Below, piece by piece: positions 6,231 through 39,501 of a stretch of 47,545 nt of DNA. Below the pieces are notes generated by a model, which was given only the letters and a program-made list of their open reading frames with translations, searched no databases and was not told the origin of the DNA. A program made the translations under genes and the position numbers. Positions within the stretch are counted from its first letter, which is position 1. Each line of letters begins with the position of its first letter. This DNA comes from Pseudomonadota bacterium (GTDB taxonomy: Bacteria > Pseudomonadota > Gammaproteobacteria > Burkholderiales > Rhodocyclaceae): the NCBI GenBank assembly GCA_040386295.1, contig JAZKFR010000038.1, positions 4,933-52,477 on the forward strand, given 5' to 3'.

Positions 6231-8006
6231 TTGGAACACTCTAGCCAGTCGATCACAAGTTTGCTACGCCGCCTCTGGAGTCATGTTGGCAAGCGCCGTC
6301 GCGTCCAATTGTTTGCGCTGTTTATGCTCATAGCCTGCACCTCTTTTGTTGAGGTCGTCAGCATCGGCGCGGTTTTGCCCTTTTTGGGCTTGCTGACCGC
6401 GCCAGAACGCGTCTTTGCACACCCATTTGCGCAGTACATTATCCAGCCACTTGGGATAGAAAGCGCGCAAGCGCTATTACTGCCGATGACGGTTATTTTT
6501 GCTGCCATCGCCTTCCTGTCTGGTTTTATGCGCTTACTGCTGCTATGGGTACAGACACGCCTGAGTCACGCGATTGGTTCTGATTTCAGTTTGGGCATGT
6601 ATAGAAGGACGCTTTACCAGGCTTACTCCGTGCACCTTGCGCGCAACAGCAGCGAGGTGATTGCCGGAATATCTAATAAAGCTAAGGCAATTGTCGGCAG
6701 CACGCTACTGCCGTTGATGGTCATTATCAGTTCAGTCATGTTGCTGGGGACTATCTTTGTTGCCTTGCTTAGCCTAGAGCCGATGATCGCGCTCATCGCC
6801 TTTAGCGGCTTCGGGATTATCTACGCAGTGGTGATTCTGGCGACCAAAAGACGAATGCTGCGCTATAGCCAAGCAATCAGCCAAGGCCATAACGATGTAG
6901 TCAGGGTCTTGCAAGAGGGCTTAGGCGGCATCAGAGATGTCTTGATCGACGGCACACAGGACACTTATTGCAACATCTACCAGGCCGTCGATGCGCCCAT
7001 GCGTCAGGCAATGGCAAACGTCCAGATCATCAGCATCAGCCCACGGTACGGGGTAGAGGCTTTGGGCATGGTCTTGATTTCCGCCTTGGCTTACCTGCTC
7101 ACGCTCAGCAGCAGCGGAATCGCCAGCGCTATTCCGGTACTTGGCGCCTTGGCCATGGGCGCACAACGCATGCTGCCCATGCTGCAACAGGCTTACTCAA
7201 GCTGGGCGTCGATCCGTAGCGGACAAATATCGCTAAGCGACGCGCTGGATTTGATGGATCAGCCACTCCCCCCTGATGCAGATAAACCTTCTCCCGCTGC
7301 GCTGCGCTTCAACAACTCTATTGTGTTGCGCAATGTCTCGTTTACATACACTCCAGAAAAACCAGAAGTCCTTCGTTGTTTCGACATTTCGATCGCCAAA
7401 GGGTGTCGGCTTGGCATCGTCGGCAGTACTGGCAGCGGCAAAAGCACCTTTCTCGATATCTTCATGGGCTTATTGTCGCCAACACAGGGTGAGATGCTGG
7501 TAGATGGGCAAAAGATAAGCGCAGAGAACCGGCGGGCGTGGCAGGCGCACATTGCGCATGTCCCGCAAAGCATCTTTCTTTCAGACGCTAGCATTGCCGA
7601 AAACATCGCATTAGGCGTACCGAAAGCGGAAATCGATTGGACGCGGCTGCGTGCGGCTGCAGAAAAAGCCCAGATCGCCGATGTGATTGCAGCACTTGAA
7701 GATGGATACGACACCCGTGTCGGTGAACGCGGTGTTCGCTTATCGGGAGGGCAGCGGCAAAGAATTGGCATCGCCAGGGCGCTCTACAAAAATGCGGATG
7801 TCATTGTTTTTGACGAAGCAACCAGCGCCTTAGACAGCGATACCGAGCGCAAAGTGATGCAGGCAATCAACACGCTAGGCAATAACCTGACCCTCATCAT
7901 CGTTGCGCATCGCGTCAGTACGCTCAAAAATTGTGACCAAATCATTGAGATTGGTGCGGGCAGAGTTGAAAGAACGGGCACTTACGATGAAATCATCTGC
8001 CCCTGA
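6231..8006 (+). CDS. Fused TMD-NBD ABC exporter (MsbA/PglK-type half transporter)
   Basis: About 300 aa with 5-6 hydrophobic helices precede Walker A GSTGSGKST, signature LSGGQRQR and Walker B VIVFDEATSALD. The TTG start at 6231 is provisional. Confidence 0.85.
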   Translation: MEHSSQSITSLLRRLWSHVGKRRRVQLFALFMLIACTSFVEVVSIGAVLPFLGLLTAPERVFAHPFAQYIIQPLGIESAQALLLPMTVIFAAIAFLSGFMRLLLLWVQTRLSHAIGSDFSLGMYRRTLYQAYSVHLARNSSEVIAGISNKAKAIVGSTLLPLMVIISSVMLLGTIFVALLSLEPMIALIAFSGFGIIYAVVILATKRRMLRYSQAISQGHNDVVRVLQEGLGGIRDVLIDGTQDTYCNIYQAVDAPMRQAMANVQIISISPRYGVEALGMVLISALAYLLTLSSSGIASAIPVLGALAMGAQRMLPMLQQAYSSWASIRSGQISLSDALDLMDQPLPPDADKPSPAALRFNNSIVLRNVSFTYTPEKPEVLRCFDISIAKGCRLGIVGSTGSGKSTFLDIFMGLLSPTQGEMLVDGQKISAENRRAWQAHIAHVPQSIFLSDASIAENIALGVPKAEIDWTRLRAAAEKAQIADVIAALEDGYDTRVGERGVRLSGGQRQRIGIARALYKNADVIVFDEATSALDSDTERKVMQAINTLGNNLTLIIVAHRVSTLKNCDQIIEIGAGRVERTGTYDEIICP

Positions 8007-8027
8007 TCAGATGAGACACAGAGCGCA

Positions 8028-9899
8028 ATGAGCCTCATCAAACAACGCGTTCTCTGGGCTAACTACCCAGGAGAAGTGCTGGCAAAAGAATTGCTTCCCT
8101 GCTTCCCGAGCTTAGCGTCTACAACTTATCGCCTCGATCAATCCGAGGTCAGATTTCTGATGACCGCGCTATCCCCGCTTTACTCGCAAATGCTAGAGAC
8201 ACTGGCTAATCCGGTGGCCGCAGCCAGCGGAGTGGAGCCAGAGCAATGCAAAATAATTCTGCGCGAATCGGTCGTACTGATCACCTACACCCTGTTTGAC
8301 AGGATGTTTAGGCTGGCCAAAATTTTGGCGGATGAAAATTTAGAGGGCCTCGTCGTAGCGACGCAGCAAGGAATTTATCCCACGAGCAACGGCCAGCTAA
8401 GCGCTTTGACCGATGGATCTCCTGAGTTTAATCAATACCTGATTGTTCAGCTTGCCGCCTCAATCTGGGCAATCCCTGAAGTTCGTTTAGCCTCCCCCAT
8501 GCTGAATGACGTAAGAAACACTAAAAAAACAAATAATCTAAATTTTGCCCAGCCCGGACTGTGGCAGCGCGTACGCCGTAAATGGAGCAAGATCATCTCA
8601 AGGCAATTCGGCACCTTCCCCACTTTAAGGCTAGCCAATATTGACGATCCTTTGCTCGACGGTGGTCTTTATGCAGCAGGCCAGCTCTTATGGCTGGAAG
8701 ACCTGAGCCATGAGAACGACACGCAGAGAGACCACGCGCTTCGGAACACTCTGGCAGAGCAGCTCAAAGCAGGTTTTTTTAGTGTTTTGACTGATCAGAT
8801 TCTTTCTCGGCTTGGCAAGCTCGCGCCATTCGTGCCGGCACGAGTCGCTGCCATATATTCCAAGCTATTGTCAGAATTGATTCCGCCAGAACGGCTAGAG
8901 GGAATAGCCGCTTACCCAAAATATGAAGCAAAGCTGGCCTCACTTTCTGCGCCTGCACTCTTCTTTTGTGCGATGCCGGGCGGGCAAGATATCCACTGGA
9001 TTGCCGCAGCAAAAAAATTACGTATCCCCGTCGTTGGCGTGCAACATGGTGCCCACTATGGGTTTTCCAGCCAGCCCTGTTTCCTAGATACCGAGTTCGC
9101 TTATTGCGATAAATTTGTTACTTGGGGATGGTCGGATTTTCCGCAACATCCTTTGTCGTCAAAGATCAGGGCAATAGCCTTACCTAGCCCCTGGCTAAGC
9201 GAACGAGCAAGTCTGTGGAAGCAAATCCAGACTTTGCGTCAGGGTCAAGGACAGAGACAGCGCCGCCCGCATGATGTCTTGCTGATGTCTGATCGGATAC
9301 AAGTCTTCCCGCCCTCAGTGAGCACCTTGCGCATGTCGAGGGTAGATTTCCTACCTGAAATAAATCGCACACTCCAAGCGCTGGTCAGCGAGTTAGCGCA
9401 GCGCAAGATTCGTCTTCTGAATAAGCCTTTTAACTACACATCGAGAGATATACAGCGCCAAGTGCTTGATGGCTTGTTGCACGAATTTCCAGAGCACTAC
9501 GCTGAATACGAAAAATTAGACAAAGGCTTGACGCAAAATTTGCTTGAGCGTGCTTGGCTGGTTCTGTGGGATGAGCCTGGCACAGGGTTTTTTGAGTGCT
9601 TAGTCGGCGGCATTCCGTGCATGGTTTGCTGGGAAAGAATGACTTCCTGCGAAGAAGATTACGCTAGACCCTATTTCCAGAAACTTGAAGATGTTGGGCT
9701 GCTGCATTCCTCGCCCACGAGCCTCGCCAAAGCAATCCAGTGCTTCCTAAATGAGCCAGAAGCTTGGCTGAATGACCGTGAGAGAAACACGGTCATTCGC
9801 CAGGTGACGGATCGTTTCGCGCAGACAGACAAAGCTTGGAACATCGCTTGGAAAGCAGCGCTAAAGACGCTTGCAAGCGACGGTTTGATTGGCCCTTAA
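8028..9899 (+). CDS. Orphan 623-aa protein, possible GT-B-like transferase
   Basis: A long ORF starting 21 nt after the ABC gene. The C-terminal half has a Rossmann-like beta-alpha pattern (IPVVGVQHGAHYG, VLLMSD, LVLWDEPGTGFFECLVGGIPCMV). I can name no diagnostic motif. Confidence 0.55.
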   Translation: MSLIKQRVLWANYPGEVLAKELLPCFPSLASTTYRLDQSEVRFLMTALSPLYSQMLETLANPVAAASGVEPEQCKIILRESVVLITYTLFDRMFRLAKILADENLEGLVVATQQGIYPTSNGQLSALTDGSPEFNQYLIVQLAASIWAIPEVRLASPMLNDVRNTKKTNNLNFAQPGLWQRVRRKWSKIISRQFGTFPTLRLANIDDPLLDGGLYAAGQLLWLEDLSHENDTQRDHALRNTLAEQLKAGFFSVLTDQILSRLGKLAPFVPARVAAIYSKLLSELIPPERLEGIAAYPKYEAKLASLSAPALFFCAMPGGQDIHWIAAAKKLRIPVVGVQHGAHYGFSSQPCFLDTEFAYCDKFVTWGWSDFPQHPLSSKIRAIALPSPWLSERASLWKQIQTLRQGQGQRQRRPHDVLLMSDRIQVFPPSVSTLRMSRVDFLPEINRTLQALVSELAQRKIRLLNKPFNYTSRDIQRQVLDGLLHEFPEHYAEYEKLDKGLTQNLLERAWLVLWDEPGTGFFECLVGGIPCMVCWERMTSCEEDYARPYFQKLEDVGLLHSSPTSLAKAIQCFLNEPEAWLNDRERNTVIRQVTDRFAQTDKAWNIAWKAALKTLASDGLIGP

Positions 9900-10010: not shown

Positions 10011-10354
10011 GTGCTGTTTAGTTCTTACGAATTTCTATTGCTCTTTCTGCCTGCAGCGTGGCTTGCGTATGGCGCAATGCGCAGGCAAAACCACAACGCC
10101 GCTCTGGGTGTGTGTTATGCGCATTTTCGATTATTTTTTACGCCTGGTGGAGCAGCGCCTTTCTGCTGCTACTGGCAGGCTCGATCGTGTTCAACTTCAC
10201 TGTCGGCGGCTTCCTCTCAAACACAGCGAGTCAGCACGCCGAGTACAAGAAGACGGCTCTTATCGTTGGTATTGCCGCCAATTTGGCGCTCTTAGCCTAT
10301 TTCAAGTATGCAGATTTTTTTGCGCGCAACATAAGTTGCAGGAACTCCGCGTGA
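10011..10354 (+). pseudogene. MBOAT (AlgI/DltB-type O-acyltransferase) remnant: frameshifted and truncated after about 105 codons
   Basis: Frame 0 starts with a classic MBOAT N-terminus (MLFSSYEFLLLFLP...). Frame 2 continues it (SIIFYAWWSSAFLLLLAGSIVFNF...LALLAYFKYADFF) and then stops. Intact MBOATs are about 470 aa. Confidence 0.7.
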
Positions 10355-10668
10355 TCCAACGATACTGTGTAGAAAACAAACTGAGATGTGTTTTTCTATC
10401 GTGTCCTGTCCATGCGTCTGCCTATATTGACCTGCAGAAGCAGATGCAGAAGTTTTTCGCTGGGTTCCCTCAGTTTGATCAACATTTTCACCTTGATCTT
10501 TCAGCTCATGAATTCCCAAACACATGGATGGGCGACACGATAGATCACATTGAGCCAGAACGAAAAGCAGAGACAACGAAGCTTTATTGGGCAAATTTTT
10601 CCCAGTACGTGCAGGATTGAAACTCAGGCTGGCCGAACTGTTTAACTGAGGTATTTTTGGAGGATGCT

Positions 10669-11346
10669 ATGGTAAAAGTTTTTATTGGATATGACCCTCG
10701 GGAAGCTGTGGCATACCATGTTTGCGCGAACAGCATTATTCGCCACGCTAGCGTCCCAATATCACTGACGCCCCTTGCCCTAAACAATCTAAAAAGCTAT
10801 CGAGAAACCCATACGGACGGCAGCAACCAGTTTATCTACAGCCGCTTCATGGTGCCTTATCTCGAGGATTATCAAGGCTGGGCCATTTTTATGGACGGCG
10901 ATATGTTGCTACGTTCTGATATCGCTGAGCTGTGGTCTCTACGCGACGAATCAAAAGCGCTTATGTGCGTTCATCATGACTACAAGACTAAAGCCGTGCA
11001 GAAATATCTAGGCGCCCAGAATCAAAACTACCCGCGCAAAAACTGGTCTAGTGTTGTTCTATGGAATTGTGGGCATCCGGCTAATCGGGTAGTTACCCCA
11101 GAGTTCATTGAGAACGCTACGGGAGCGCAGCTGCACCGTTTTACCTGGCTTACGGACGAACTAATTGGGGAGCTGCCAAAGGTCTGGAACTGGCTGCCCG
11201 ACGAGTTTGGCGCGAACCCTGACGCAAAGCTCTTGCACTGGACTTTAGGGACGCCTTGTTTTCACGAGTATGCTGCAGCCCCCATGGCCGAGGAATGGCA
11301 TCGCGAGGCGCTGCTCGCAAACTACTCACTACAATTCAAGGCATGA
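10669..11346 (+). CDS. GT-A fold (GT8-like) glycosyltransferase
   Basis: VFIGYDPRE...YSRFMVP...IFMDGDML gives a DxD motif in a nucleotide-diphospho-sugar transferase layout. The start is set at ATG 10669, 5 nt after GGAGGA. Confidence 0.55.
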   Translation: MVKVFIGYDPREAVAYHVCANSIIRHASVPISLTPLALNNLKSYRETHTDGSNQFIYSRFMVPYLEDYQGWAIFMDGDMLLRSDIAELWSLRDESKALMCVHHDYKTKAVQKYLGAQNQNYPRKNWSSVVLWNCGHPANRVVTPEFIENATGAQLHRFTWLTDELIGELPKVWNWLPDEFGANPDAKLLHWTLGTPCFHEYAAAPMAEEWHREALLANYSLQFKA

Positions 11347-11404
11347 AGCAGCATCTGTATCAATACTCAGCTTGGACGATCGAATGATCAGGTGCTTGCA
11401 ATAA

Positions 11405-12106
11405 ATGTCCTTTAGAGCGAAAAAAGTGATTGCGCTGATCCCCGCCAGGGGCGGCTCAAAAGGAGTTCACCGCAAGAATTTGCGCCTTATCCAGGGGCGC
11501 CCTCTTGTCGCGCACAGCCTTCAGGCTGCACTCGATTGCACGCTAATTGATCAGGTTGTTCTCTCATCGGACGACGCGGAAATTTTGGCAGTCGGGCGCC
11601 ATCTAGGCGTGCAGCTGCACCAACGCTCGCCCGCAGCAGCCAGTGATAGCGCGACGGCCAATGAGGTGATGCATGATTTTTTAGCCGGGCTGCCACGCGA
11701 TGTGCTTGCGGCTGACCCGTTCGTGGTTTTTTTGCAGCCGACTTCCCCGCTCCGCACGGGCAAAGATATTGATGCTGCATTCGCTTTGCTTGAGTCGAGC
11801 CAGGCCGAGCTGTGTATTAGTGTTGTTGAAGTCAACAAAACGCCGTTCAAGTCATTCACGCTGGGCGCAACGGGCTGTCTTCAAGCCTTGTTTGACGAGA
11901 GCATGACGAATGCTAATCGACAGACTTTGCCGAAAATTTTTTACCCTAACGGGGCAATTTATATTTTCCCGCTGCACGCTTTCGTCAACAAGGGAGGATT
12001 CCCTTCAAATGGTGCAATTCCTTACGTGATGCCCGAGTCGCGTAGTATCGATGTCGATTCGGAAGAAGACTTACAAGCTATTGAGAGACTATGTCCAGAG
12101 AAATGA
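11405..12106 (+). CDS. neuA: CMP-nonulosonic acid synthetase (acylneuraminate cytidylyltransferase), copy 1
   Basis: IALIPARGGSKGVHRKNL and LQPTSPLR motifs of the CTP_transf_3 / NeuA family; 233 aa. Confidence 0.8.
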   Translation: MSFRAKKVIALIPARGGSKGVHRKNLRLIQGRPLVAHSLQAALDCTLIDQVVLSSDDAEILAVGRHLGVQLHQRSPAAASDSATANEVMHDFLAGLPRDVLAADPFVVFLQPTSPLRTGKDIDAAFALLESSQAELCISVVEVNKTPFKSFTLGATGCLQALFDESMTNANRQTLPKIFYPNGAIYIFPLHAFVNKGGFPSNGAIPYVMPESRSIDVDSEEDLQAIERLCPEK

Positions 12107-13134
12107 TCATTCAAGGGCGGGCGATTGGTGCCGAACACCCGCCTATCGTGATTGCCGAAATCGGCATCAATCACGAGGGTTCGCTCGCAACAGCCATCGC
12201 CATGGCCGATGCTGCAATCGACGCTGGCGCCGAAATCATTAAGCATCAAACGCATATCGTCGACGACGAAATGTCTGAAGAAGCGAAGTCCGTGATCCCC
12301 GGTAATGCCGATGTTTCGATTCACGAAATCATGGCACGTTGCGCGCTATCGGAGGCTGACGAAAAAACTTTGATGCAGCACGTGCAGGCGCGTGCTGCCA
12401 TTTTCATCAGTACGCCTTTCTCTCGAGCGGCAGCTGAACGGCTGATTCGCTTCGATATCCCAGCCTTTAAAATTGGCTCGGGCGAATGCAATAATTACCC
12501 CTTGATTCGCCATATCGCACGTGCTGGCAAACCCGTGATCATCAGTACCGGGATGAACAGTATCGAGTCGATTGCACCATCGGTCGCTATTCTGCGGCAG
12601 GCAGGCGTCCCCTACGCCTTGCTTCACTGCACCAACGTCTACCCGACGCCCGCCCATTTGGTGCGCTTAGGCGCGATGGTGAAATTGCAAGAGGCATTCC
12701 CTGACGCCATCGTTGGCCTTTCGGATCACACCGTTGGCAACTACACCTGTCTCGGCGCGGTGGCGCTTGGCGCATCCATTCTTGAGCGCCATTTTACGGA
12801 TCGCATGGATCGTCCGGGACCAGACATCGTTTGTTCGATGGATCCGGGTGCACTGAAGACGCTGATAGAGGGATCGAAGGTGATCTGGTCGGCGCGTGGC
12901 GGAGATAAAACAGCGATTGCAGCTGAAGCACCAACCATCGCGTTTGCCTTTGCCTCGGTGGTCGCTATTCGAGACATTGCTGCGGGTGAGTTATTGAGCG
13001 AGGAAAATATCTGGGTCAAGCGACCCGGTGGCGGTGATTACCTGGCTAAAGACTACGAGTCGCTCCTGGGAAAAACGGCGGTAAGCAATATCCGCAGCGG
13101 TTTCCAGTTGAGGAAAGCAGACGTATTGGTATGA
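12091..13134 (+). CDS. neuB: Nonulosonic acid synthase (NeuB family), copy 1
   Basis: Motifs IAEIGINHEG, KHQTH, STPFS, KIGSGE, STGM, LLHCTNVYPTP, GLSDHT and ERHFT, plus a C-terminal SAF domain. An alternative start at 12103 would give an ATGA overlap with neuA. Confidence 0.85.
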   Translation: MSREMIIQGRAIGAEHPPIVIAEIGINHEGSLATAIAMADAAIDAGAEIIKHQTHIVDDEMSEEAKSVIPGNADVSIHEIMARCALSEADEKTLMQHVQARAAIFISTPFSRAAAERLIRFDIPAFKIGSGECNNYPLIRHIARAGKPVIISTGMNSIESIAPSVAILRQAGVPYALLHCTNVYPTPAHLVRLGAMVKLQEAFPDAIVGLSDHTVGNYTCLGAVALGASILERHFTDRMDRPGPDIVCSMDPGALKTLIEGSKVIWSARGGDKTAIAAEAPTIAFAFASVVAIRDIAAGELLSEENIWVKRPGGGDYLAKDYESLLGKTAVSNIRSGFQLRKADVLV

Positions 13135-14267
13135 GCGATCAAGCTATCCGTAAGATCGTTTTTCTGACGGGAACCCGCGCTGATTTCGGCAAACTCAAGT
13201 CTTTGATGCTGCAGTTACAGGCAGACGCCTGCTTCGAGGTCCATGTCTTTGTTACTGGGATGCACATGCTGTCCAAGTACGGCTCAACCTGGGAGGAAGT
13301 GCGTAAAGCCGGCCTGAACAATCTTTACTGCTTCATCAATCAGAACGAACATGACTCGATGGATCATATCCTGGCCAAAACAATTGCCGGATTGTCCGAT
13401 TATGTGAAAGAAATGTCCCCCGACCTCATCGTCGTGCACGGTGATCGTCTAGAGGCGCTGGCAGGCGCGATTGTCGGCGCGTTTAACAACATTCGCGTTG
13501 CCCACATCGAAGGGGGCGAGGTGTCGGGCACGATTGACGAAGTCATTCGGCATTCAATCTCAAAGATGTCGCATCTCCACTTCGTTGCGAATGATCAAGC
13601 GAAGCGACGGTTGATCCAGCTGGGCGAGCGGGATGAGACAATCCACGTGATTGGTTCTCCCGATGTTGATGTAATGAATTCTTCTGCCTTGCCCTCGCTG
13701 GAGGAAGTGCAGCGCTATTACGAATTTAATTTTGCCGAATACGCCATTCTGATGTTCCACCCGGTAACGACCGAGCTGCGTCTGATCCGCAATCAGATAG
13801 CAACACTCGTCGATGTGATTCTCGAGTCGGGACAAAACTTCGTTGTTCTGTATCCGAACAACGATCATGGTACGGATATTATTTTGGACGAATACGAGCG
13901 GCTACGTGACTGTGCGCGGATTGCCCTCTACCCGTCTATGCGCTTTGAGTATTTCCTAACGCTGCTCAAGCGCGCTCGTTACATGATCGGCAACTCAAGC
14001 GCGGGCATCCGTGAAGCACCCCACTTTGGCGTTCCTACCATCAATTTAGGTTCAAGGCAGCACAGACGAGTGCAAACGCCTTCTGTGTTGGATGTCACGA
14101 TCACGCATGAGGCTATTCGAGACGCCATTGCGCGCGCGCCCTCGGCACCGAGAACACCGCAGATTCTGTTTGGCGATGGCAACAGTGCTTCTGCTTTTCA
14201 CCAAGTACTGCGCGCCAAAGAGACCTGGCTTAGGGAAATTCAGAAGCATTTTGTCGATTACATGTAA
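13131..14267 (+). CDS. neuC: Hydrolysing NDP-HexNAc 2-epimerase (NeuC family), copy 1
   Basis: Motifs FLTGTRADFGKL, HGDRLEALAGA, HIEGGEVSGTIDE, RHSISKMSHLHF and GNSSAGIREAP. The start forms an ATGA overlap with neuB. Confidence 0.85.
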   Translation: MSDQAIRKIVFLTGTRADFGKLKSLMLQLQADACFEVHVFVTGMHMLSKYGSTWEEVRKAGLNNLYCFINQNEHDSMDHILAKTIAGLSDYVKEMSPDLIVVHGDRLEALAGAIVGAFNNIRVAHIEGGEVSGTIDEVIRHSISKMSHLHFVANDQAKRRLIQLGERDETIHVIGSPDVDVMNSSALPSLEEVQRYYEFNFAEYAILMFHPVTTELRLIRNQIATLVDVILESGQNFVVLYPNNDHGTDIILDEYERLRDCARIALYPSMRFEYFLTLLKRARYMIGNSSAGIREAPHFGVPTINLGSRQHRRVQTPSVLDVTITHEAIRDAIARAPSAPRTPQILFGDGNSASAFHQVLRAKETWLREIQKHFVDYM

Positions 14268-14305
14268 GCAAAAAGCAGCACTTTGCTGACCAGCAAATTT
14301 TTTGG

Positions 14306-16993: not shown

Positions 16994-17024
16994 GCAACCA
17001 CGATTCGATTGGAGCAGGCTGACG

Positions 17025-19235: not shown

Positions 19236-19238
19236 GCC

Positions 19239-26083: not shown

Positions 26084-26084
26084 T

Positions 26085-26888: not shown

Positions 26889-26899
26889 GGAACAAATCT

Positions 26900-28677: not shown

Positions 28678-28699
28678 TTTTTGCCTCGGGACAAACTGA

Positions 28700-29530: not shown

Positions 29531-29562
29531 TTGACGCTTAATTAATGTCTAATTGAACGCTA

Positions 29563-31547: not shown

Positions 31548-31575
31548 GCCTACTTAAATCATCAGCGAGGTAGCA

Positions 31576-32352: not shown

Positions 32353-33422
32353 AAGATGCTTACCTAGGCGTTTTTCGCGGCAAACGCGTTCTGGTAACGG
32401 GGCATACTGGATTCAAAGGCTCCTGGCTGACCCTATTACTCACCTCTTTAGGTGCTGAAGTGATGGGTTATGCGCTGCCGGCTCAAGATGCAGAAAGCCA
32501 CTTCGCCTGCCTGGGTCTCGAAGACTCAATTCGCCACATCACGGGGGATATTCGTGATGGTGCACGCGTGCTGGCCGAAGTCTCGGCTTTTCAGCCAGAA
32601 ATCGTTTTTCATTTGGCGGCACAGGCGCTAGTGCGACCGTCCTACTTTGACCCCAAAACAACTTTTGACGTCAATCTTGGCGGCGGGGTCAATCTTCTAG
32701 AAGCGGTGCGGCAATGCGCTAGCGTGCGCGCACTGGTCTTTGTCACCTCTGATAAGTGTTACGAAAATCTAGAGTGGATATGGGGCTACCGCGAATCGGA
32801 CACGCTCGGCGGACACGATCCTTACAGCGCCTCCAAAGGCGCCGTCGAACTGGTCTTCTCGTCGTATTTGCGCTCGTTCTTCGCGCAGCGAGCAGACTTC
32901 GGCGCCGCCAGCGTGCGCGCGGGTAACGTCATCGGGGGCGGGGATTGGGCGGCAGATCGTATTGTCCCCGACTGCATTCGCGCCCTACGCGCCGGGCAGC
33001 CGATCATTATTCGCAGCCCTGAGGCGACACGCCCTTGGCAGCACGTACTCGAACCGCTATCGGGCTACCTCAAGTTGGCGGCGAGTTTATACGAGCACGG
33101 ACACGCTTACGCTGGCGCTTGGAATTTTGGCCCGCATGTGGGCGATGTGCGCACGGTGCTCGACGTAGCCAAGACCCTTGCGGCGCAATTTGAGCAGGCG
33201 CAAGTGCTTGTCGATGCGCCACAACACAAAGTACACGAAGCGCAGTTGCTTCAACTCAACAGCGACAAGGCGCGCCAGCGCTTAAACTGGGACACGCGCT
33301 GGGATTTTGCACAAACCTTGGCGGCGACGGGTGGCTGGTACAAAGCAGTGCTGATCGAGGGCAAACCAGCCACGCTCGTTTCGCGCGAACAAATTTCTCA
33401 ATACTACGGAGGCCAACTGTGA
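32337..33422 (+). CDS. rfbG: CDP-glucose 4,6-dehydratase
   Basis: VLVTGHTGFKGSWL, YSASK and a 361-aa length, directly downstream of rfbF. The TTG start is provisional. Confidence 0.85.
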   Translation: MGTLVKDAYLGVFRGKRVLVTGHTGFKGSWLTLLLTSLGAEVMGYALPAQDAESHFACLGLEDSIRHITGDIRDGARVLAEVSAFQPEIVFHLAAQALVRPSYFDPKTTFDVNLGGGVNLLEAVRQCASVRALVFVTSDKCYENLEWIWGYRESDTLGGHDPYSASKGAVELVFSSYLRSFFAQRADFGAASVRAGNVIGGGDWAADRIVPDCIRALRAGQPIIIRSPEATRPWQHVLEPLSGYLKLAASLYEHGHAYAGAWNFGPHVGDVRTVLDVAKTLAAQFEQAQVLVDAPQHKVHEAQLLQLNSDKARQRLNWDTRWDFAQTLAATGGWYKAVLIEGKPATLVSREQISQYYGGQL

Positions 33423-33868
33423 TTGATGGCGTCATCGTGACCCCCTTAAAACAAATCGCCGACGAGCGGGGAAAAGTCATGCACATGCTGCGCAACGATG
33501 CGCCGCATTTTGCTGGCTTCGGCGAAATCTATTTCTCTACCGTCCATCCCGGCGCAATCAAGGGCTGGCACGTGCATCAGCGGATGATCCTGAATTACGC
33601 AGTACCGCAGGGCATGATCAAATTCGTTCTCTACGACGACCGCCCTGGCAGTAAAACGCAAGGCGTGGTGCAGGAGCTCTTTCTCGGCGTCGACAACTAC
33701 TGTTTGGTCACCGTGCCGCCCAGGGTTTGGAACGGCTTTAAGGGGATCGGTACGGAGACCGCACTGGTGGCCAATTGCGCGAGTATTGCGCACGACCCGT
33801 ATGAGATCGAACGCAAAGATCCGTTCGATCCTGCGATTCCCTACGACTGGGCGATCAAACACCGATGA
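33419..33868 (+). CDS. Short RmlC-like cupin NDP-4-keto-6-deoxyhexose epimerase
   Basis: GEIYFSTVHPGAIKGWHVHQRM...; a 149-aa cupin. The GTGA start overlaps the rfbG stop. Confidence 0.7.
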   Translation: MIDGVIVTPLKQIADERGKVMHMLRNDAPHFAGFGEIYFSTVHPGAIKGWHVHQRMILNYAVPQGMIKFVLYDDRPGSKTQGVVQELFLGVDNYCLVTVPPRVWNGFKGIGTETALVANCASIAHDPYEIERKDPFDPAIPYDWAIKHR

Positions 33869-33875
33869 AACACCA

Positions 33876-34862
33876 ATGAAACAGCGCGTCCTAATTACCG
33901 GCGGCCTTGGCTACGTCGGCGGTCGCATCGCGCAAGCGCTGCTTACAGCGGGCCATTCAGTACGTTGCGGCACGCGCCGCGCAAACTTGTCGGCACCGGC
34001 GTGGCTGCCTGAGATGGCACTGGTCAGGCTCGACTGGGCGTCGCCCGATTCGCTCGCTGAGGCCTGTCGCGGCATCGAATGCGTTATTCATCTGGCCGCC
34101 ATGAACGAAATCGAATCAGCGCAAGATCCGCTAGGTGCTTTGCAGATGAATGGCTTAGCCAGCTTGCGCCTACTCGAAGCCGCCAAACACGCCGCTGTTC
34201 GACGCTTTATTTATTTTTCAACGGCGCATGTCTATGGCGCACCGTTGCAAGGTGAGATTAGCGAAACCAGCCTGCCGCGACCGATCCATCCTTACGCCAT
34301 CACGCACAAAGTGGCCGAAGATTTTGTGTCGGCTGCACACGATCAGAAGCAAATCGAAGGGCTGGTCATTCGCCTATCGAATGGCTTTGGCGCACCACTG
34401 ACGGCACAAATCGATCGCTGGACGCTGTTAGTCAACGATCTATGCCGCCAAGCCGTGACTCGGGGTGAACTCAGTTTGAACAGCGCAGGCACTCAGTTGC
34501 GCGACTTCATTACGCTAGCCGACGTTGCGCGCGCGGTGAATCATCTGTTGCAACTCGATGTAACCCAGCTCGGCGATGGTTTGTTCAATTTAGGCAGCGG
34601 CGAATCCGTGTCTATCTTCGCAATGGCGCAACGCATTGCTGGACGTTGGCACGCGTTGAGCGGGCAAACTGCGCCCATCATCAGACCAGAACCGAAGCCA
34701 GCAGCAAACTCGAACAGCAATAGTCTCACCGTAGCGGCGCTCAACTACCGTTGCGCTAAGCTCGCTGCGACTGGCTTTGCGCTTACTTCGCAAGTCGACC
34801 GCGAGATCGACGACACCCTGCGTTTGTGCACACAAGCGTTTGGCCAGCAAAGAAAAATATGA
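33876..34862 (+). CDS. NAD(P)-dependent epimerase/reductase (extended SDR), likely a 4-ketoreductase
   Basis: VLITGGLGYVGGRI and YAITK. The start is at ATG 33876, because the tracked 33786 start overlaps the cupin gene. Confidence 0.7.
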   Translation: MKQRVLITGGLGYVGGRIAQALLTAGHSVRCGTRRANLSAPAWLPEMALVRLDWASPDSLAEACRGIECVIHLAAMNEIESAQDPLGALQMNGLASLRLLEAAKHAAVRRFIYFSTAHVYGAPLQGEISETSLPRPIHPYAITHKVAEDFVSAAHDQKQIEGLVIRLSNGFGAPLTAQIDRWTLLVNDLCRQAVTRGELSLNSAGTQLRDFITLADVARAVNHLLQLDVTQLGDGLFNLGSGESVSIFAMAQRIAGRWHALSGQTAPIIRPEPKPAANSNSNSLTVAALNYRCAKLAATGFALTSQVDREIDDTLRLCTQAFGQQRKI

Positions 34863-35746
34863 CCAATCCACGCGTCTCGATTGTCATCCCGACCTATAAC
34901 CATGCGCACTTCTTACGCACGGCGCTAGATTCAATCCTGGCGCAGACCGTGCAGGATTGGGAAGCCATCGTCGTCAATAACTTTTCTACTGACGATACGA
35001 TCGAGGTAGTTCAGTCCTACGACGACGCGCGCATCAAACTGGTTAATTTTGCTAACCACGGAATCATCTCTGCTGCGCGCAATCATGGCCTATCTTTGAC
35101 GCAAGCCCCGCTCGTCGCGTTTCTCGACTCGGACGACGCTTGGTATCCAAACAAGCTCGCGCTGTGTTTGGACAAACTGGCGCAAGGATATGACCTGGTG
35201 TGCCATGGCGAACTTTGGTTAGGGCCTGAGCAAAGGCGACGTACAGTGCACTACGGCCCTGCCGCCAGGGCGAGCTACGCAAGCTTGCTCCTGCAAGGTA
35301 ATTGCCTGTCGACCTCAGCTGTGGTCGTGCGCAGGGAATGCCTGGAGCAGGTTGGCGCGTTCAGCGTTCTGCCAGAATTTGTCACTGCCGAAGATTACGA
35401 ACTGTGGCTTAAATTAGCGCGCGCAGGCGTGCGCATCGCCTTCCTTGAAGACATCCTGGGTGAATACTTGATTCATGAGGCGAACCAAAGCCGCGCCGCA
35501 TTGCGCAATATGCAGGCGGTCATGGCCGTCTTCAAAGAGCATAGCGCGGCGCTGCCTGAGCAGGTTCCGGCGCGGCGTTTGCGTCGGCGCGAAGCCATTA
35601 TTTTTTATAGCGGCGCACGCGGTTTACAAGACAGCGGACAGTACCGGCAGGCATGGCCGTATTTTTTCAAAGCAGTGCTGCATTACCCCTGGGTTCTGCG
35701 CTTTTATGCCGCGATGCTGCTTAATGCCCTCGGGCGACGACCATGA
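34859..35746 (+). CDS. GT2-family glycosyltransferase
   Basis: VSIVIPTYNHAHFL...FLDSDD (GT-A DxD). The ATGA start overlaps the upstream stop. Confidence 0.8.
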   Translation: MTNPRVSIVIPTYNHAHFLRTALDSILAQTVQDWEAIVVNNFSTDDTIEVVQSYDDARIKLVNFANHGIISAARNHGLSLTQAPLVAFLDSDDAWYPNKLALCLDKLAQGYDLVCHGELWLGPEQRRRTVHYGPAARASYASLLLQGNCLSTSAVVVRRECLEQVGAFSVLPEFVTAEDYELWLKLARAGVRIAFLEDILGEYLIHEANQSRAALRNMQAVMAVFKEHSAALPEQVPARRLRRREAIIFYSGARGLQDSGQYRQAWPYFFKAVLHYPWVLRFYAAMLLNALGRRP

Positions 35747-35758
35747 AGGCTTAAGCGG

Positions 35759-36538
35759 ATGAGACTGCGTCGTTTTATTACGCGATCGATTGCGCAAGCG
35801 ATCGCTGCTGCCAATTGCTTTCGCTTGCCGCCAGAAGGTTTACGCGTGCTCATGTATCACGCGATCGGGACGCCCGCGCTGGGCGATCAATTAGGTTTAT
35901 TTTCCTTATCGCGCGAACGCTTTCAGCAGCATATGCGTTGGCTTGCAGCGCAAGCGCGCTTTAAGGTCGTCGCGCTGACGGAAAGCGTACTCGCGGCGCA
36001 GGGGCGCCGCGTTGCGATTAGCTTTGACGACGGCTATCTAGACAACCTGGAAGTCGCAGCGCCCATTCTGAGCGAGCTAGGCTTACCGTTTACGGTGTTC
36101 GTCACTTCAGAATTTGTCCGTACCGGCAAGCCAGGCTTTCTCTCTCCGTCGGCTCTGCGTAGCTTGGCCGCTTTACCCGGCGCGCAAATCGGCGCACACG
36201 GGGCAAATCACCTAGACCTAGCGCAATGCGACGAGCCGACTTTGCACGCCGAATTGCGCTCCAGCCGAGACTACCTAGAAGATGTGCTGGGCAGCCCGGT
36301 GCGCATGCTGGCGTATCCGTATGGCGCAGCCAATCTCCGTGTCAGAGCAGCTGCGCTGGCGGCGGGTTATCGACTCGGAGCCTGTAGTCAGGCGGGCATT
36401 AACCGCGCTCAGCGTGATCCTCTGTTATTGCGCCGCACTGAAGTGCTCGCTTGCGATAACGCACGCGTATTTGCGCAAAAGCTACATGGCGATTGGGATT
36501 GGTATCGTTGGCGCAGGCAGGATCCGGCATGTTTTTAA
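35759..36538 (+). CDS. Polysaccharide deacetylase (NodB homology, CE4)
   Basis: ISFDDGYLDN (Asp-Asp metal/catalytic motif), GAHGANH and LAYPYG. Confidence 0.8.
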   Translation: MRLRRFITRSIAQAIAAANCFRLPPEGLRVLMYHAIGTPALGDQLGLFSLSRERFQQHMRWLAAQARFKVVALTESVLAAQGRRVAISFDDGYLDNLEVAAPILSELGLPFTVFVTSEFVRTGKPGFLSPSALRSLAALPGAQIGAHGANHLDLAQCDEPTLHAELRSSRDYLEDVLGSPVRMLAYPYGAANLRVRAAALAAGYRLGACSQAGINRAQRDPLLLRRTEVLACDNARVFAQKLHGDWDWYRWRRQDPACF

Positions 36539-37530
36539 ACTCGCCCCTTATTTCTGCCAGCGCTTTTCCCGTGACGCTGGTCATCCCGATTCTGAATGAG
36601 GCCGAGTCCTTGCCTGAATTGCTGCAGGCGATCAAGGCACAAAAGCATCGTCCCGACGAGATGATTTTTTCTGATGCCGGATCATCCGATGGCAGCGTCG
36701 CCTTAATCGAGGCTTGGTGGCAACGCGAAGCCTGGGTCGGAGCGGCGTGTCGGGTGCTTGTTCTACCCGGCGCGATGCCGGGCGCCGGGCGCAACGCAGG
36801 GGTACGCCTTGCACGCAACGGCTGGATTGCTTTTCTCGACGGCGGCATCACGCCGCACCACGATTGGTTGCAACAGCTGTGTCGTCATGCCCGAGAAAAC
36901 AAAGCGCTGGCCGTCTTCGGTCTATGCCATTTTTCAGCACAGAGCTCGTTTGCCAAAACAGTCTGCGCTTTGTCCTATGGCTACGGCGCGCTACACCCGG
37001 TGATCCCAGCTTCTTTGTTCGCGCGCCCGCTCTTTGAAGCCATCGGCTTCTTTCCTGAACACTTACGTGCTGGCGAAGATATTGTTTGGGTCAATGCCTT
37101 AGTCGCGCGCTATGGTTCGCGCGAAGTGTGCAGCGCGGCGCGCGTTGAGTACACGCACTTCCCGCAGGGCTGGCGCCAGGTGGTACGCAAGTGGCGCTTG
37201 ACCGAAGCGCATTGCGTATTCGCCGGGGTCAGAACAACACAACAAGCGCTCTATTTACTCGGCTTGCCCACCCTGTATCTACTGCTAGGTTTCGGCGGCA
37301 GCGTAGGCTTAGCCACCTTCACCGCTTATCTTGCCTTGCGCGGGGTGATCGACCCGATACGACGTAGTGCGGATCGCCCTTGGTGGCGCGGACGTCCCAG
37401 CGCAGCGCTGAGGGCACCGCTGCTAGTCCTTGCCCTAGACCTCAGCAAATGGTTCGGGATCATGCAAGGTATCGCGCTCAAATGCTGGCGCAAGCTTGCG
37501 CTTAGCGAGGAACAAAATGCTCGCCGTTGA
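36529..37530 (+). CDS. GT2-family glycosyltransferase with C-terminal membrane helices
   Basis: TLVIPILNEAESL, SDAGSSDGS and FLDGG, followed by hydrophobic ALYLLGLPTLYLLLGFGGSVGLATFTAYLAL. Confidence 0.75.
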   Translation: MFLNSPLISASAFPVTLVIPILNEAESLPELLQAIKAQKHRPDEMIFSDAGSSDGSVALIEAWWQREAWVGAACRVLVLPGAMPGAGRNAGVRLARNGWIAFLDGGITPHHDWLQQLCRHARENKALAVFGLCHFSAQSSFAKTVCALSYGYGALHPVIPASLFARPLFEAIGFFPEHLRAGEDIVWVNALVARYGSREVCSAARVEYTHFPQGWRQVVRKWRLTEAHCVFAGVRTTQQALYLLGLPTLYLLLGFGGSVGLATFTAYLALRGVIDPIRRSADRPWWRGRPSAALRAPLLVLALDLSKWFGIMQGIALKCWRKLALSEEQNARR

Positions 37531-38527
37531 ACCTCGGGAAGTACTGTTTCCCAGCGACACCCAGCTGCGTTATTACAGTTTGGCGCGCTATGCCCTGATC
37601 GATGCGCTACACCTGGCCGGGATTGGCCACGGCAGTCGCGTGCTGTTGCCCGGCTACCTATGCCGTGATCTGCTGGCACCGCTGCATTTATTAGGTGCTC
37701 TCGCCTGTTGGTACGAAGTCGCGCCAGATTTATCACCGGCACAATCACCCGAGCTGTGGCCACAAGCGGACGCTGTGTTAGCCATCAATTACTTCGGTTT
37801 TGCGCAAGATCTAAGGCCATTCCAAAGCTATGCGCAGCGTACTGGCGCAGTGCTTATCGAAGACAACGCACACGGTTATCTGAGTCGAGATCAAGACGGT
37901 TGCTGGCTCGGCTGTCGTGCCACTTTGGGACTGTTTAGCCTGCGTAAAACCTTGCGTATTCCTGACGGTGCTGTGCTGTGGTTTAGCGCACTGCCCAGTA
38001 CACGCACAATCCCGCAACAACTTCCGTTCTCTGGACACGGGCTTAATCCAGCGCAACTGAGCAAAGCCCGTTTGCGCCGCCTACCGCTGATCGGCGAAAC
38101 GCTCTATCGGAGCTCAATAGCGCTCGCTCGATGGCTACGTAAGCAACGCACAGGCAGTGCAACGCCGACGACAGACCCAAACTCTGAATATTTAGTACCT
38201 GGCTCGCCACAACCCTGGTCTGGATTACGCGCCGCACTAGCTGCTTGCGTCGCATCAAGAGAAATTGAACGACGTCGAACAGCCTATCTACGCTGTGCAG
38301 AAATCGGCGTGCGCGTCGGCGCGCGGCCTATCTTTAGTCACTTACCCGATTATTGCGCGCCCTACGCCTTCGCCTTTCGCGCCGACCAAACAGCGCTCGA
38401 CGCGATGCGACGCTATGCTGCCGAGCAGGGCTTCGATCTAGTCAGCTGGCCAGATCTACCTGAAGAAATCGTCAGCCAAGCGCCAACGCATTATTGCAAC
38501 GTATTTTTGATCAATTTCTTATGGTGA
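37517..38527 (+). CDS. DegT-like PLP-fold protein, N-terminally short and atypical
   Basis: ARYALIDALHLAGIGHGSRVLLPGY, LIEDNAHGY and LFSLRKTLRIPDGAVL parallel the DegT/DnrJ core, including a candidate PLP lysine. The usual first ~40 aa are absent. Confidence 0.5.
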   Translation: MLAVEPREVLFPSDTQLRYYSLARYALIDALHLAGIGHGSRVLLPGYLCRDLLAPLHLLGALACWYEVAPDLSPAQSPELWPQADAVLAINYFGFAQDLRPFQSYAQRTGAVLIEDNAHGYLSRDQDGCWLGCRATLGLFSLRKTLRIPDGAVLWFSALPSTRTIPQQLPFSGHGLNPAQLSKARLRRLPLIGETLYRSSIALARWLRKQRTGSATPTTDPNSEYLVPGSPQPWSGLRAALAACVASREIERRRTAYLRCAEIGVRVGARPIFSHLPDYCAPYAFAFRADQTALDAMRRYAAEQGFDLVSWPDLPEEIVSQAPTHYCNVFLINFLW

Positions 38528-39501
38528 TTTGGACACAATATCGGGGCTCAGCGTCTGCCTGGGACGAACACGTAGCGGCCTTGTCCGGGGGTTTCTACCA
38601 GAGCTATGGCTGGGCTGAGGTACGCCGGGTCGCTGGCTGGCAAGCCTTACGTATGCTGGCAAAACAAGATGGGCAGCTTGTTTGCGCCGCCAGCATCTTG
38701 GTCAAACGCAAGCTTGGCGTCGCGGTGTGTTGGATTCCCGGCGGTCCGCTAGGCTCAGCTCAGCTGCTCGACGATCACTTTCGCTCGGCCTTGAGCCAAG
38801 CCCTCGGAACGCCTGCCGTCTATTGTCGCCTGAGCCTGCTACGGCCTGCGCAGACAGGGGAAGAGACCTTTCTGCGCGCTTCAAGCTGGACGCGACCCGC
38901 TGTCGCCATGAGTAGCGGACTGACGATGTGTTACTCGCTCGCAGGCGATGAAAGCGAACGTTTAAAGCGGACGAGTGGTAATTGGCGGCACAACTTAAAG
39001 CGCTCTGGACGCTACGGACTGCGCATTGAACATTGGGCGCACCCCGATCTGGCCGCCATTTCTGCTCTGTACCGAGAAATGGAAGCGCTCAAAGGCTTAC
39101 CCGTACAACATAGCGAGACCGAGCTGGCTGCGATGTTTGCACAGTGCGGCAAACAGATCGTCATTTATCGTTGTCTCGATAGCGCAGGACGTTTGTTGGC
39201 GCTACGGGCCGCTGGTTTGTGTGCTACGACGGCGATGGATTTGCTCGCCGCAGCTGGCGGCGAAGCACGTAAGGTGTATGCCTCGCACGCCACACTTTGG
39301 GGCTTACTCGATCATTGCAGCCAGCTCGGATTAGTTGACTACGATTTGAGCGGCGTTGACCCCGAAGGAAACAAAGGCGTATTTGATTTCAAACACGGCA
39401 CAGGCGCTGTATTAACGCAATGCTTGGGTGAGTGGGAGTGGGCTTCGCTACCGGGTTTATGCTCAGCCGTTAATTACTTGCTCAAACGCAAAGGCGTTTG
39501 A
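38521..39501 (+). CDS. FemAB-like / GNAT-fold aminoacyl or acyl transferase
   Basis: FYQSYGWAEV, NWRHNLKRS and FDFKHGTGA resemble the FemABX / Acetyltransf_6 layout. It is the last gene of the operon. Confidence 0.6.
   Translation: MVIWTQYRGSASAWDEHVAALSGGFYQSYGWAEVRRVAGWQALRMLAKQDGQLVCAASILVKRKLGVAVCWIPGGPLGSAQLLDDHFRSALSQALGTPAVYCRLSLLRPAQTGEETFLRASSWTRPAVAMSSGLTMCYSLAGDESERLKRTSGNWRHNLKRSGRYGLRIEHWAHPDLAAISALYREMEALKGLPVQHSETELAAMFAQCGKQIVIYRCLDSAGRLLALRAAGLCATTAMDLLAAAGGEARKVYASHATLWGLLDHCSQLGLVDYDLSGVDPEGNKGVFDFKHGTGAVLTQCLGEWEWASLPGLCSAVNYLLKRKGV

Follow-up and report, generated by a model that had tools for sequence, protein, structure and literature searches.

Gene content and control of the glycan operon

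The subject of this analysis is a 47,545-nt stretch of contig JAZKFR010000038.1 (positions 4,933 to 52,477; Rhodocyclaceae), referred to below as the window, and in particular a glycan operon that fills positions 6231-39501 of its + strand and is headed by a gene for an ATP-binding cassette (ABC) exporter. The open reading frame (ORF) listing, together with a Pfam and NCBIfam scan of every + strand ORF, gave 33 intact co-directional genes and one pseudogene, where the first-pass annotation had estimated about 30 genes. The spacers between the genes range from -47 to +58 nt, apart from a 757-nt gap occupied by the pseudogene and three bigger overlaps (-83, -100 and -203 nt), at least two of which are artefacts of over-long start calls. 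The operon encodes two nonulosonic-acid pathways, an acetamidino-forming trio, a CDP-6-deoxyhexose pathway, seven glycosyltransferase-like proteins and several tailoring enzymes. The seven glycosyltransferase-like proteins comprise a GT8-like enzyme, a GT4 enzyme, two GT2 enzymes and three orphans (a LIC12162-family protein, an LA_1612-family protein and a protein of 382 amino acids (aa)); at least five had been expected. Precursor synthesis for at least three unusual sugars, also expected, could be assigned to a legionaminic-acid set, a second NeuA/NeuB/NeuC set accompanied by WbuX, HisF and HisH, and the CDP-6-deoxyhexose genes. The features of the locus are listed below.

4749-4824, + strand: tRNA-Phe(GAA) (ARAGORN; Rfam tRNA, 71 bits), the upstream boundary of the locus
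5091-5609, + strand: RfaH, an operon-specific NusG paralogue and antiterminator (TIGR01955 163.5, cut-off 144.5; PRK09014 136.4, cut-off 124; Pfam NusG)
5992-6003, + strand: ops element GGCGGTAGCCTG, 228 nt 5' of the ABC gene (pattern search)
6231-8006, + strand: ABC exporter with fused transmembrane and nucleotide-binding domains, first operon gene (Pfam ABC_membrane and ABC_tran)
8028-9899, + strand: LIC12162-family protein, 623 aa (partial TIGR04331 match; PF27859 label in homologues)
10011-10620, + strand: pseudogene of a membrane-bound O-acyltransferase (MBOAT) (tblastn; comparison with the related locus L021)
10657-11346, + strand: GT8-like small glycosyltransferase with a DxD motif (Pfam Glyco_transf_8 25.9 bits, cut-off 24.3)
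11405-14267, + strand: module 1, three nonulosonic-acid genes (Pfam, NCBIfam), given singly in the next three lines
11405-12106, + strand: CMP-nonulosonate synthetase (Pfam CTP_transf_3)
12091-13134, + strand: NeuB-type synthase (Pfam NeuB and SAF; NCBIfam NeuB 373, just under the cut-off of 399.65)
13131-14267, + strand: NeuC-type hydrolysing 2-epimerase (Pfam Epimerase_2; NCBIfam NeuC 421, cut-off 236)
14306-16993, + strand: acetamidino-forming set (NCBIfam), given singly in the next three lines
14306-15532, + strand: WbuX amidotransferase (TIGR03573 357.8, cut-off 203.2)
15529-16362, + strand: HisF/WbuZ-like protein (WbuZ 271.4, below the cut-off of 299.7)
16349-16993, + strand: HisH-like glutaminase (HisH 205.4, cut-off 105.4)
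16791-18191, + strand: LA_1612-family putative O-antigen biosynthesis protein (TIGR04441)
18240-27532, + strand: module 2, legionaminic-acid pathway (NCBIfam, Pfam)
27529-28677, + strand: orphan 382-aa protein (AlphaFold2 and Foldseek: GT-B fold)
28700-29530 and 29563-30246, + strand: two S-adenosylmethionine-dependent methyltransferases (Pfam Methyltransf_23/31/12/25/11)
30147-31547, + strand: GT4 glycosyltransferase (Pfam Glycos_transf_1 120 bits); the domain starts at residue 45 and the real start is probably 3' of 30147
31576-34862, + strand: module 3, CDP-6-deoxyhexose pathway, with glucose-1-P cytidylyltransferase (TIGR02623 312.9, cut-off 300.25), CDP-glucose 4,6-dehydratase (TIGR02622 464.3, cut-off 278.45), then a cupin epimerase (149 aa) and a short-chain dehydrogenase/reductase (SDR) family reductase/epimerase (both Pfam)
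34826-35746, + strand: soluble GT2 glycosyltransferase (Pfam Glycos_transf_2 102 bits; no hydropathy peak)
35759-36538, + strand: NodB-type polysaccharide deacetylase (Pfam Polysacc_deac_1 82.8 bits)
36493-37530, + strand: GT2 glycosyltransferase with C-terminal hydrophobic segments at about 250-285 and 305-335 (Pfam Glycos_transf_2 69 bits; hydropathy peaks at 255 and 310)
37496-38527, + strand: weak DegT-like protein (Pfam DegT 21.8 bits)
38494-39501, + strand: FemAB/GNAT-like acyl or aminoacyl transferase, last operon gene (Pfam FemAB 48.8 bits, Acetyltransf_6)
39518-40738, convergent: major facilitator superfamily (MFS) transporter directly 3' of the operon, followed by leuA

A search with the ABC protein yielded at least 8000 matches at E≤1e-20. 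The best 120 of these are 58-70% identical to it, and the named ones among them belong to Methylopumilus, Thiobacillus, Methylococcales and Sphingorhabdus. A scan of a genome collection with the same protein returned 14 loci. Twelve loci with ABC orthologues at 45-63% identity were inspected, and a 70%-identical orthologue was judged from its gene table only. All inspected orthologues sit in sugar-biosynthesis clusters of widely differing content, and such clusters headed by an ABC orthologue occur in many Beta- and Gammaproteobacteria.

RfaH marks long operons for envelope and surface components, such as lipopolysaccharide (LPS), capsule, haemolysin and the conjugative pilus. Taken with the sugar-pathway genes, this role points to a surface polysaccharide as the product of the operon. 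The RfaH gene and the ops element, both of which had been missed in the first-pass annotation, lie upstream of the ABC gene. The ops element was found with the pattern GGCGGTAGnnT on the coding strand of the leader, and the ops 12-mer has two matches in the window against 0.06 expected. The second exact ops-like 12-mer, GGCGGTAGTTTG, is located at 39665-39676 on the minus strand, within the 3' part of the convergent MFS gene; transcription from this site would enter the glycan operon antisense. An ops element also occurs on the + strand 5' of the ABC orthologue in five relatives (L001, L005, L008, L011 and L012), and RfaH-like genes precede the orthologue in L005, L008 and L011. Given the established role of the family, the glycan operon is probably under RfaH/ops control.

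The Rfam scan of the window revealed only the tRNA, with no JUMPstart match, and consensus scans for promoters and terminators found sites no more often than in shuffled sequence. In three relatives, a small MarR-family 'EPS-associated' regulator is encoded just 5' of the ABC orthologue (L001 9526-9864, L005 7502-7816 and L010 8090-8530), and the L010 protein scores 135 with TIGR04176, above the cut-off of 88. The window lacks such a regulator; only RfaH and ops lie ahead of the ABC gene there.

The ABC exporter and the search for assembly genes

The ABC exporter is a single chain with an N-terminal six-helix membrane domain and a C-terminal ATPase (Pfam, hydropathy), and the Walker A, signature, Walker B and H-loop motifs can all be read in its translation. 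In a full-length PDB search, PglK was the best homodimeric match (residues 13-579 against 3-560, 222 bits). With the membrane domain alone (residues 1-348), PglK was the only PDB match at E≤1e-3 (E 2e-6). A membrane-domain profile built from 11 family members placed PglK first in the PDB at E 3.7e-8, about four orders of magnitude ahead of the next match, TM287/288 (2e-4), with MsbA at 0.02-0.08. Each PglK monomer has four cavity arginines of functional relevance, probably in contact with the pyrophosphate of the lipid-linked oligosaccharide (PMC5395944). According to the profile alignment, R86 and R260 of PglK correspond to R101 and R272 of the exporter, both invariant in the family alignment, and R302 corresponds to R313, conserved in at least 90% of the family. 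The segment between transmembrane helices TM1 and TM2 is of equal length in the two proteins. The earlier suggestion of a PglK-style lipid-linked glycan thus gained support from the membrane domain and from three of the four arginines.

The best NCBIfam matches of the exporter were MsbA (278.6), PglK (273.5) and HepA (260.1), all far under the equivalog cut-offs. For MsbA the thresholds were missed widely (TIGR02203 278.6 against 602; PRK11176 207 against 867), so the exporter is not the housekeeping MsbA. A lipooligosaccharide (LOS)-type system would make use of an MsbA-like protein: the transferases would extend lipid A-core directly at the cytoplasmic face, as in Campylobacter, Neisseria and Haemophilus, the exporter would be a specialised MsbA-like flippase for the bulky glycolipid, and no starter, polymerase or ligase would be required. 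The lead of MsbA in NCBIfam, though of a few bits, is consistent with this, as are the lack of a starter transferase and ligase gene in the window and the occurrence of sialic-acid genes in Campylobacter LOS loci. However, the substrate is determined by the membrane domain, and this domain matches PglK rather than MsbA; WecA-like, PglC-like and WaaL-type genes are found in the clusters of relatives; and 33 genes with three sugar pathways are a large set for a LOS outer core. We consider a LOS-type system very unlikely.

No ORF of the operon or of the window flanks matched Wzx, Wzy/WaaL, Wzz, a WecA/MraY-type or WbaP/PglC-type transferase, an ABC-2 permease, KpsC/S or Wza/KpsD (Pfam, NCBIfam). 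As for Wzm/Wzt or Kps export in particular, no ORF of the window matches ABC2_membrane (PF01061), Capsule_synth or Poly_export. The sole exception, a 22-bit match of the 149-aa cupin to Polysacc_synt_C, was rejected as a sign of a Wzx fragment: the match is sub-threshold and in our view spurious, and the protein has no transmembrane segment and sits in the CDP-sugar module. Hydropathy indicated three polytopic proteins in the whole window, namely the ABC exporter, the convergent MFS transporter and a PepSY_TM protein that is truncated at the 5' end of the window. The membrane-associated products of the operon are the exporter, the GT2 enzyme at 36493-37530 and the MBOAT remnant. All three orphan proteins lack a transmembrane segment. 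Polymerases, flippases, ligases and starter transferases of known type are all integral membrane proteins, and therefore the LIC12162-family, LA_1612-family and 382-aa proteins do not belong among them.

These results uphold the first-pass annotation, which had seen three membrane-associated products and no flippase, polymerase, chain-length regulator, WaaL, phosphoglycosyltransferase or outer-membrane export component. The profile scan of the orphan ORFs, which it had named beforehand as the refuting test, returned no known polymerase, flippase or initiating transferase.

In Helicobacter pylori, the O-antigen is started by WecA, built by cytoplasmic glycosyltransferases, flipped by Wzk, a PglK-homologous ABC flippase, and transferred by WaaL (Hug et al. 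2010, PMC2841628). When the PglK/Wzk route is taken into account, the missing machinery ceases to be anomalous; the absence of Wzz or of an outer-membrane exporter is no anomaly for a lipid A-linked glycan that depends on an ABC transporter or flippase.

The neighbours of the ABC orthologues differ greatly between relatives. In L001 (Ca. Methylopumilus universalis), the order is ABC, LIC12162, GT8, NeuA, NeuB, NeuC, WbuX, HisF and HisH, whereas L002 (Thiobacillus) has CDP-sugar genes, methyltransferases and transferases and no nonulosonic-acid gene. Such a conserved exporter with variable cargo genes fits a flippase of relaxed specificity, as demonstrated for Wzk (PMC2841628). In the 12 loci, with the exception of L010, the ABC protein is the sole polytopic membrane protein inside the glycan cluster. 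L010, from another Methylopumilus, encodes a WecA-like PF00953 protein within the gene string of the ABC gene, two genes 5' of it, and, about 6.6 kb 5' of the ABC gene, a divergent Wzy_C/WaaL-type gene (PF04932). The L020 locus (from a 1.33-Mb genome) is syntenic with window positions 18240-35746, including the Leg genes, the 382-aa homologue, GT4, the CDP-sugar genes and GT2, and its gene string ends with a PglC-like polyprenyl glycosylphosphotransferase (PF02397) and a PglD-like acetyltransferase. The WecA-like and PglC-like genes indicate that this family of clusters does use undecaprenyl-phosphate starter enzymes. The first-pass annotation had offered two ways out, assembly genes located elsewhere or an undescribed ABC-dependent route. 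The results favour a mixture of the two: the starter and WaaL-type genes of L010 and L020 speak for starter and attachment steps encoded elsewhere, and the exporter speaks for an ABC-dependent route of the PglK type. That this route is undescribed is not supported, the Wzk route having been known since 2010 (PMC2841628).

A conventional Wzx/Wzy system, or another exporter, might also be encoded elsewhere in the genome, in which case the ABC protein would export something unrelated or be accessory. Thiobacillus L002 offers a precedent, since it carries a Wzx-type (Polysacc_synt) gene about 10 kb 3' of the ABC orthologue. Yet the ABC gene comes first in the operon, with a spacer of 21 nt before the next gene, its orthologues lie consistently inside glycan clusters with no other polytopic protein, and neither Wzx nor Wzy is encoded in the 33 kb, all of which leaves this alternative with little credibility.

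The same clusters bear on the acceptor. If the glycan were assembled and flipped in the same way and then transferred to pilin, flagellin or O-glycoproteins by a PglL/PglB-type enzyme encoded elsewhere, the operon would serve protein glycosylation. PglK, the closest characterised relative of the exporter, serves N-glycosylation; about seven transferases would suit a defined oligosaccharide; the Wzy_C-family protein of L010 could be of the PglL type; and L020 ends with PglC-like and PglD-like genes, as pgl loci do. Set against this are the RfaH/ops pair and the large variable cluster, which are more typical of O-antigen and capsule operons according to established knowledge of the RfaH regulon, the lack of an oligosaccharyltransferase gene in the window and the proven role of a PglK homologue in O-antigen synthesis in H. 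pylori (PMC2841628). The last case means that homology to PglK does not decide the acceptor. On balance, protein glycosylation appears rather unlikely.

A hint as to where the glycan goes comes from the MBOAT pseudogene (10011-10620). It consists of the frameshifted N-terminal part of an MBOAT gene, about 100 codons, joined to the last approximately 86 codons of a partner gene. The remnant has no Pfam match; the fragment 10058-10354 gave tblastn matches to annotated MBOAT genes on 30 plasmids. In L021 the region between LIC12162 and GT8 (2607-5867) contains a methyltransferase, an intact 510-aa MBOAT (PF03062, 119 bits) and a 321-aa partner, and window positions 10360-10620 match the C-terminus of this partner. 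The intact arrangement at the same position shows that the window has lost about 2 kb there, and we propose that a putative periplasmic O-acetylation by the MBOAT system was lost here through this deletion. The intact L021 enzyme points to a glycan that reaches the periplasm.

Sugar pathways and candidate transferases

Module 2 contains, in order, LegB, LegC, a NeuD-type acetyltransferase, NeuB (LegI), NeuC (LegG), a CBS-nucleotidyltransferase (PtmE-like), a GFO oxidoreductase (PtmF-like), a CMP-transferase (LegF), an SDR (PtmA-like) and a hexapeptide acetyltransferase. Five of the products exceed their cut-offs: LegB (TIGR04180, 521 against 475) and LegC (TIGR04181, 532 against 420), whose NCBIfam models are of hypothetical-equivalog grade, as well as NeuD (190 against 161), NeuB (488 against 400) and NeuC (470 against 236). 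Judged by sequence, the module is a complete legionaminic-acid gene set for the GDP-GlcNAc route of the Campylobacter type, and legionaminic acid is its predicted product.

Module 1 is well conserved in L001, L021, L024 and L025, where the genes from GT8-like to HisH (10657-16993) are mostly 55-86% identical to those of the window. Their neighbours are on the whole less conserved in these loci (ABC 55-63%, LIC12162 43-55%). The GT8-like gene is 78-86% identical and syntenic in the same four loci and in L026, and is always linked to module 1. L001, L021, L024 and L025 yielded no DegT-type aminotransferase, and module 1 occurs there with no linked 4,6-dehydratase or aminotransferase. The sugar made by module 1 may therefore derive from UDP-GlcNAc alone and yet gain an acetamidino group; we know of no described acetamidino sugar of such an origin. 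In L024 and L025, the LA_1612 gene is directly followed by the 382-aa homologue, so in the window the 9.3-kb legionaminic-acid module seems to have been inserted between the two. The G+C content of this module (0.57) is slightly higher than that of the upstream part (0.52-0.535).

At the end of the operon, the NodB-type deacetylase is followed by the DegT-like and the FemAB/GNAT-like protein. It may be speculated from their families that the three products could N-deacetylate an amino sugar and then re-acylate it, possibly with an amino acid. The membrane-anchored GT2 enzyme (36493-37530) might be GtrB/ArnC-like or an initiating enzyme; its ArnC match is of 21.6 bits over 48 residues only.

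The three orphan families show no significant relationship to one another in a profile-profile comparison. The LIC12162-family protein has a partial match to TIGR04331 (NCBIfam, 112.9 bits against a cut-off of 225), and the precomputed Pfam label PF27859 is carried by the protein and by all 28 homologues found. Its AlphaFold2 model, calculated with 26 homologues, has a pLDDT of 90, and a Foldseek search with the model revealed GT-B enzymes, including MurG, SdgB, NGT and UDP-GlcNAc 2-epimerases. This GT-B fold model of the protein is, as a prediction, new. The literature searched contained no functional study of the LIC12162 family, nor one of PglK with O-antigen in Betaproteobacteria. Among 27 metagenome loci that contain a LIC12162 gene, 15 have NeuA/NeuB-type genes as well; the remainder consists mostly of contigs whose shortness precludes a verdict. 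The one paper found to mention the family describes such a gene beside neuABC in an LPS island of Herbaspirillum AU14040 (PMC6679464).

The LA_1612-family protein exceeds the cut-off of TIGR04441 clearly (313.7 against 150). The match begins at ORF residue 92, and the real start of the gene is probably near 17064. No Pfam or PDB match was found for this protein. The 382-aa protein has no Pfam, NCBIfam or PDB sequence match; its 172 homologues are all unnamed or called 'hypothetical protein', and none has a Pfam domain. The family is characterised by a His-Pro motif in which P249 is invariant and H248 near-invariant (at least 90%). The AlphaFold2 model (pLDDT 91.8) resembles GT1-type GT-B glycosyltransferases and 2-epimerases, with a Foldseek E of 5e-9. 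Since Foldseek singled out no sialyltransferases for the two GT-B orphans, the donor specificity suggested for them comes from the gene neighbourhood. The best reading of the LIC12162-family and 382-aa models is that of soluble GT-B proteins, candidate nonulosonic-acid transferases.

The proximity of the LIC12162 and ABC genes admits another interpretation, namely that the two proteins form a dedicated module which, much as in KpsMT/KpsCS capsules, would both polymerise and export a nonulosonic-acid polymer on a different carrier from undecaprenyl pyrophosphate, with outer-membrane parts encoded elsewhere. An ABC exporter gene is adjacent to the LIC12162 gene, or a few kb from it, in six metagenome loci (L023, L024, L025, L028, L038 and L039). 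The two genes are adjacent in the window, L001, L023 and L024 and about 3.5 kb apart in the same cluster in L025, and more distant ABC proteins, only about 28% identical to the exporter of the window, adjoin LIC12162 genes in L028, L038 and L039. LIC12162 genes are also nearly always near NeuA/NeuB-type genes, and the window has no starter transferase. On the other hand, ABC orthologues of about 60% identity head clusters with no LIC12162 or nonulosonic-acid gene (L002/L003, L005 and L012), the relatives encode undecaprenyl-phosphate-dependent starter transferases, and no Kps-like component was found. We regard such a route as improbable. Equally improbable is the combination of two linked possibilities, that the ABC and LIC12162 proteins would be a dedicated nonulosonic-acid module bypassing the undecaprenyl pyrophosphate starter and WaaL, and that module 1 would make an undescribed acetamidino derivative of the sialic-acid type. 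If true, the ABC-LIC12162 module would be a fourth assembly route for surface glycans, widespread in environmental Proteobacteria.

Proposed assembly route and its significance

We propose that the locus is an RfaH/ops-controlled operon for a nonulosonic-acid-rich surface glycan, most likely an LPS O-antigen, with assembly of the PglK/Wzk type and with the starter transferase and the ligase encoded elsewhere; we give this proposal a little better than an even chance of being correct. RfaH would bind RNA polymerase paused at ops and carry transcription through the 33 genes. The enzymes encoded would make CMP-legionaminic acid, a second CMP-nonulosonic acid with an acetamidino group, and a CDP-6-deoxyhexose, the sugar structures being those suggested by the gene families. 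With a primer from a WecA- or PglC-type transferase whose gene lies beyond the window, the seven soluble or peripherally anchored glycosyltransferase-like proteins would assemble the glycan on undecaprenyl pyrophosphate, on the cytoplasmic side of the membrane, and tailoring enzymes would add methyl, acetyl and possibly aminoacyl groups. The finished lipid-linked glycan would then be flipped to the periplasm by a homodimer of the ABC exporter, whose cavity arginines may hold the pyrophosphate as in PglK, to judge from the similarity of the two proteins. Finally, a WaaL-type ligase encoded elsewhere would join the glycan to lipid A-core, transfer to proteins by a PglL-type oligosaccharyltransferase being less likely.

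Several points weigh against this proposal. The exporter scores 273.5 with the PglK equivalog model NF050066, the cut-off of which is 1000, and so, by the curated criterion, does not count as an orthologue of Campylobacter PglK. The match of its membrane domain to PglK is distant (30-36 bits), and the fourth cavity arginine of PglK, R309, corresponds to Gln320, an invariant glutamine in the family. MsbA also binds lipid A phosphates with arginine rings, so the conservation of the arginines is not fully discriminating. One relative, L002, has the Wzx-type gene already described, and the PF04932 family of the L010 protein covers WaaL, PglL and Wzy alike. With neither a starter transferase nor a ligase encoded in the 47.5-kb window, the lipid carrier and the final acceptor are putative, and the literature searched holds no experimental test of members of the ABC, LIC12162, LA_1612 or 382-aa families. 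Overall, the similarity of the exporter to PglK is specific but distant: the sequence comparisons support the statement that it works like PglK, while the statement that it is a PglK orthologue is unsupported.

The closest described system is the Wzk pathway of H. pylori, and the closest characterised protein is PglK of Campylobacter jejuni. As in H. pylori, a PglK-homologous fused ABC half-transporter is the sole candidate translocase (the likeness to Wzk follows from its description, whereas the sequences were compared with PglK), the locus has no Wzx, Wzy, Wzz or Wzm/Wzt, and the starter and ligase genes are not beside the transferases. The glycan is finished in the cytoplasm by soluble transferases in H. 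pylori and probably also here, and the varied cargo shown for Wzk is suggested in the present case by orthologues in differing clusters. In contrast to H. pylori, where the genes are scattered, the exporter gene is the first in a single 33-kb RfaH/ops operon; the predicted cargo is rich in legionaminic-type acids and a CDP-6-deoxyhexose instead of Lewis antigens, and the host lineage looks Beta- or Gammaproteobacterial, not Campylobacterota. With C. jejuni PglK (PDB 5C73, 5C76 and 5C78) the exporter shares an end-to-end alignment, the TM1-TM2 length and three cavity arginines; the replacement of R309 and the missed equivalog cut-off set it apart. Unlike the C. jejuni pgl locus, the window has no PglB, PglC or other pgl genes, and its glycan cluster is far larger.

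Two of the orphan families were named from O-antigen loci, the rfb loci of Leptospira, and each has one member in the window (LIC12162, TIGR04331/PF27859; LA_1612, TIGR04441). Here the members are linked to nonulosonic-acid genes, and the LIC12162 member falls under the TIGR04331 cut-off. The LPS locus of Legionella pneumophila, about 30 kb in length, directs the synthesis of a legionaminic-acid homopolymer with a 5-acetamidino group and uses a two-component Wzm/Wzt ABC-2 transporter. It shares with the window the neuA/B/C-type genes and an acetamidino set of amidotransferase, HisH and HisF type. The window differs from it in having no ABC-2 permease, its exporter being of the fused PglK type, and in adding a second Leg pathway, that of the Campylobacter-type GDP-GlcNAc route.

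Outside the operon, two paralogous tetratricopeptide repeat (TPR) proteins are encoded at 43074-45236 and 45712-47545; their N-terminal approximately 290 aa are 34% identical, and a weak TPR match is their only family match. A 102-nt tandem DNA array at 46367-47540 proved to be the coding sequence for the 34-aa TPR repeats of the second gene, which continues past the window end. Beside the tRNA-Phe gene lies a 1115-aa ORF (1208-4555, minus strand) that matches nothing in Pfam or NCBIfam and contains a single weak hydrophobic segment.

The locus puts forward the LIC12162, LA_1612 and 382-aa families as candidate transferases for legionaminic-type sugars; few enzymes for such sugars are known, and glycoengineering has a demand for them. 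The Wzk/PglK-type route is usually taken as a peculiarity of Helicobacter and Campylobacter. The locus described here and its relatives suggest that it may be far commoner, and that a PglK-like flippase heading an RfaH-controlled variable cluster may be a common surface-glycan strategy in environmental Beta- and Gammaproteobacteria. Surface glycans of this kind are prime determinants of susceptibility to phages and grazers.

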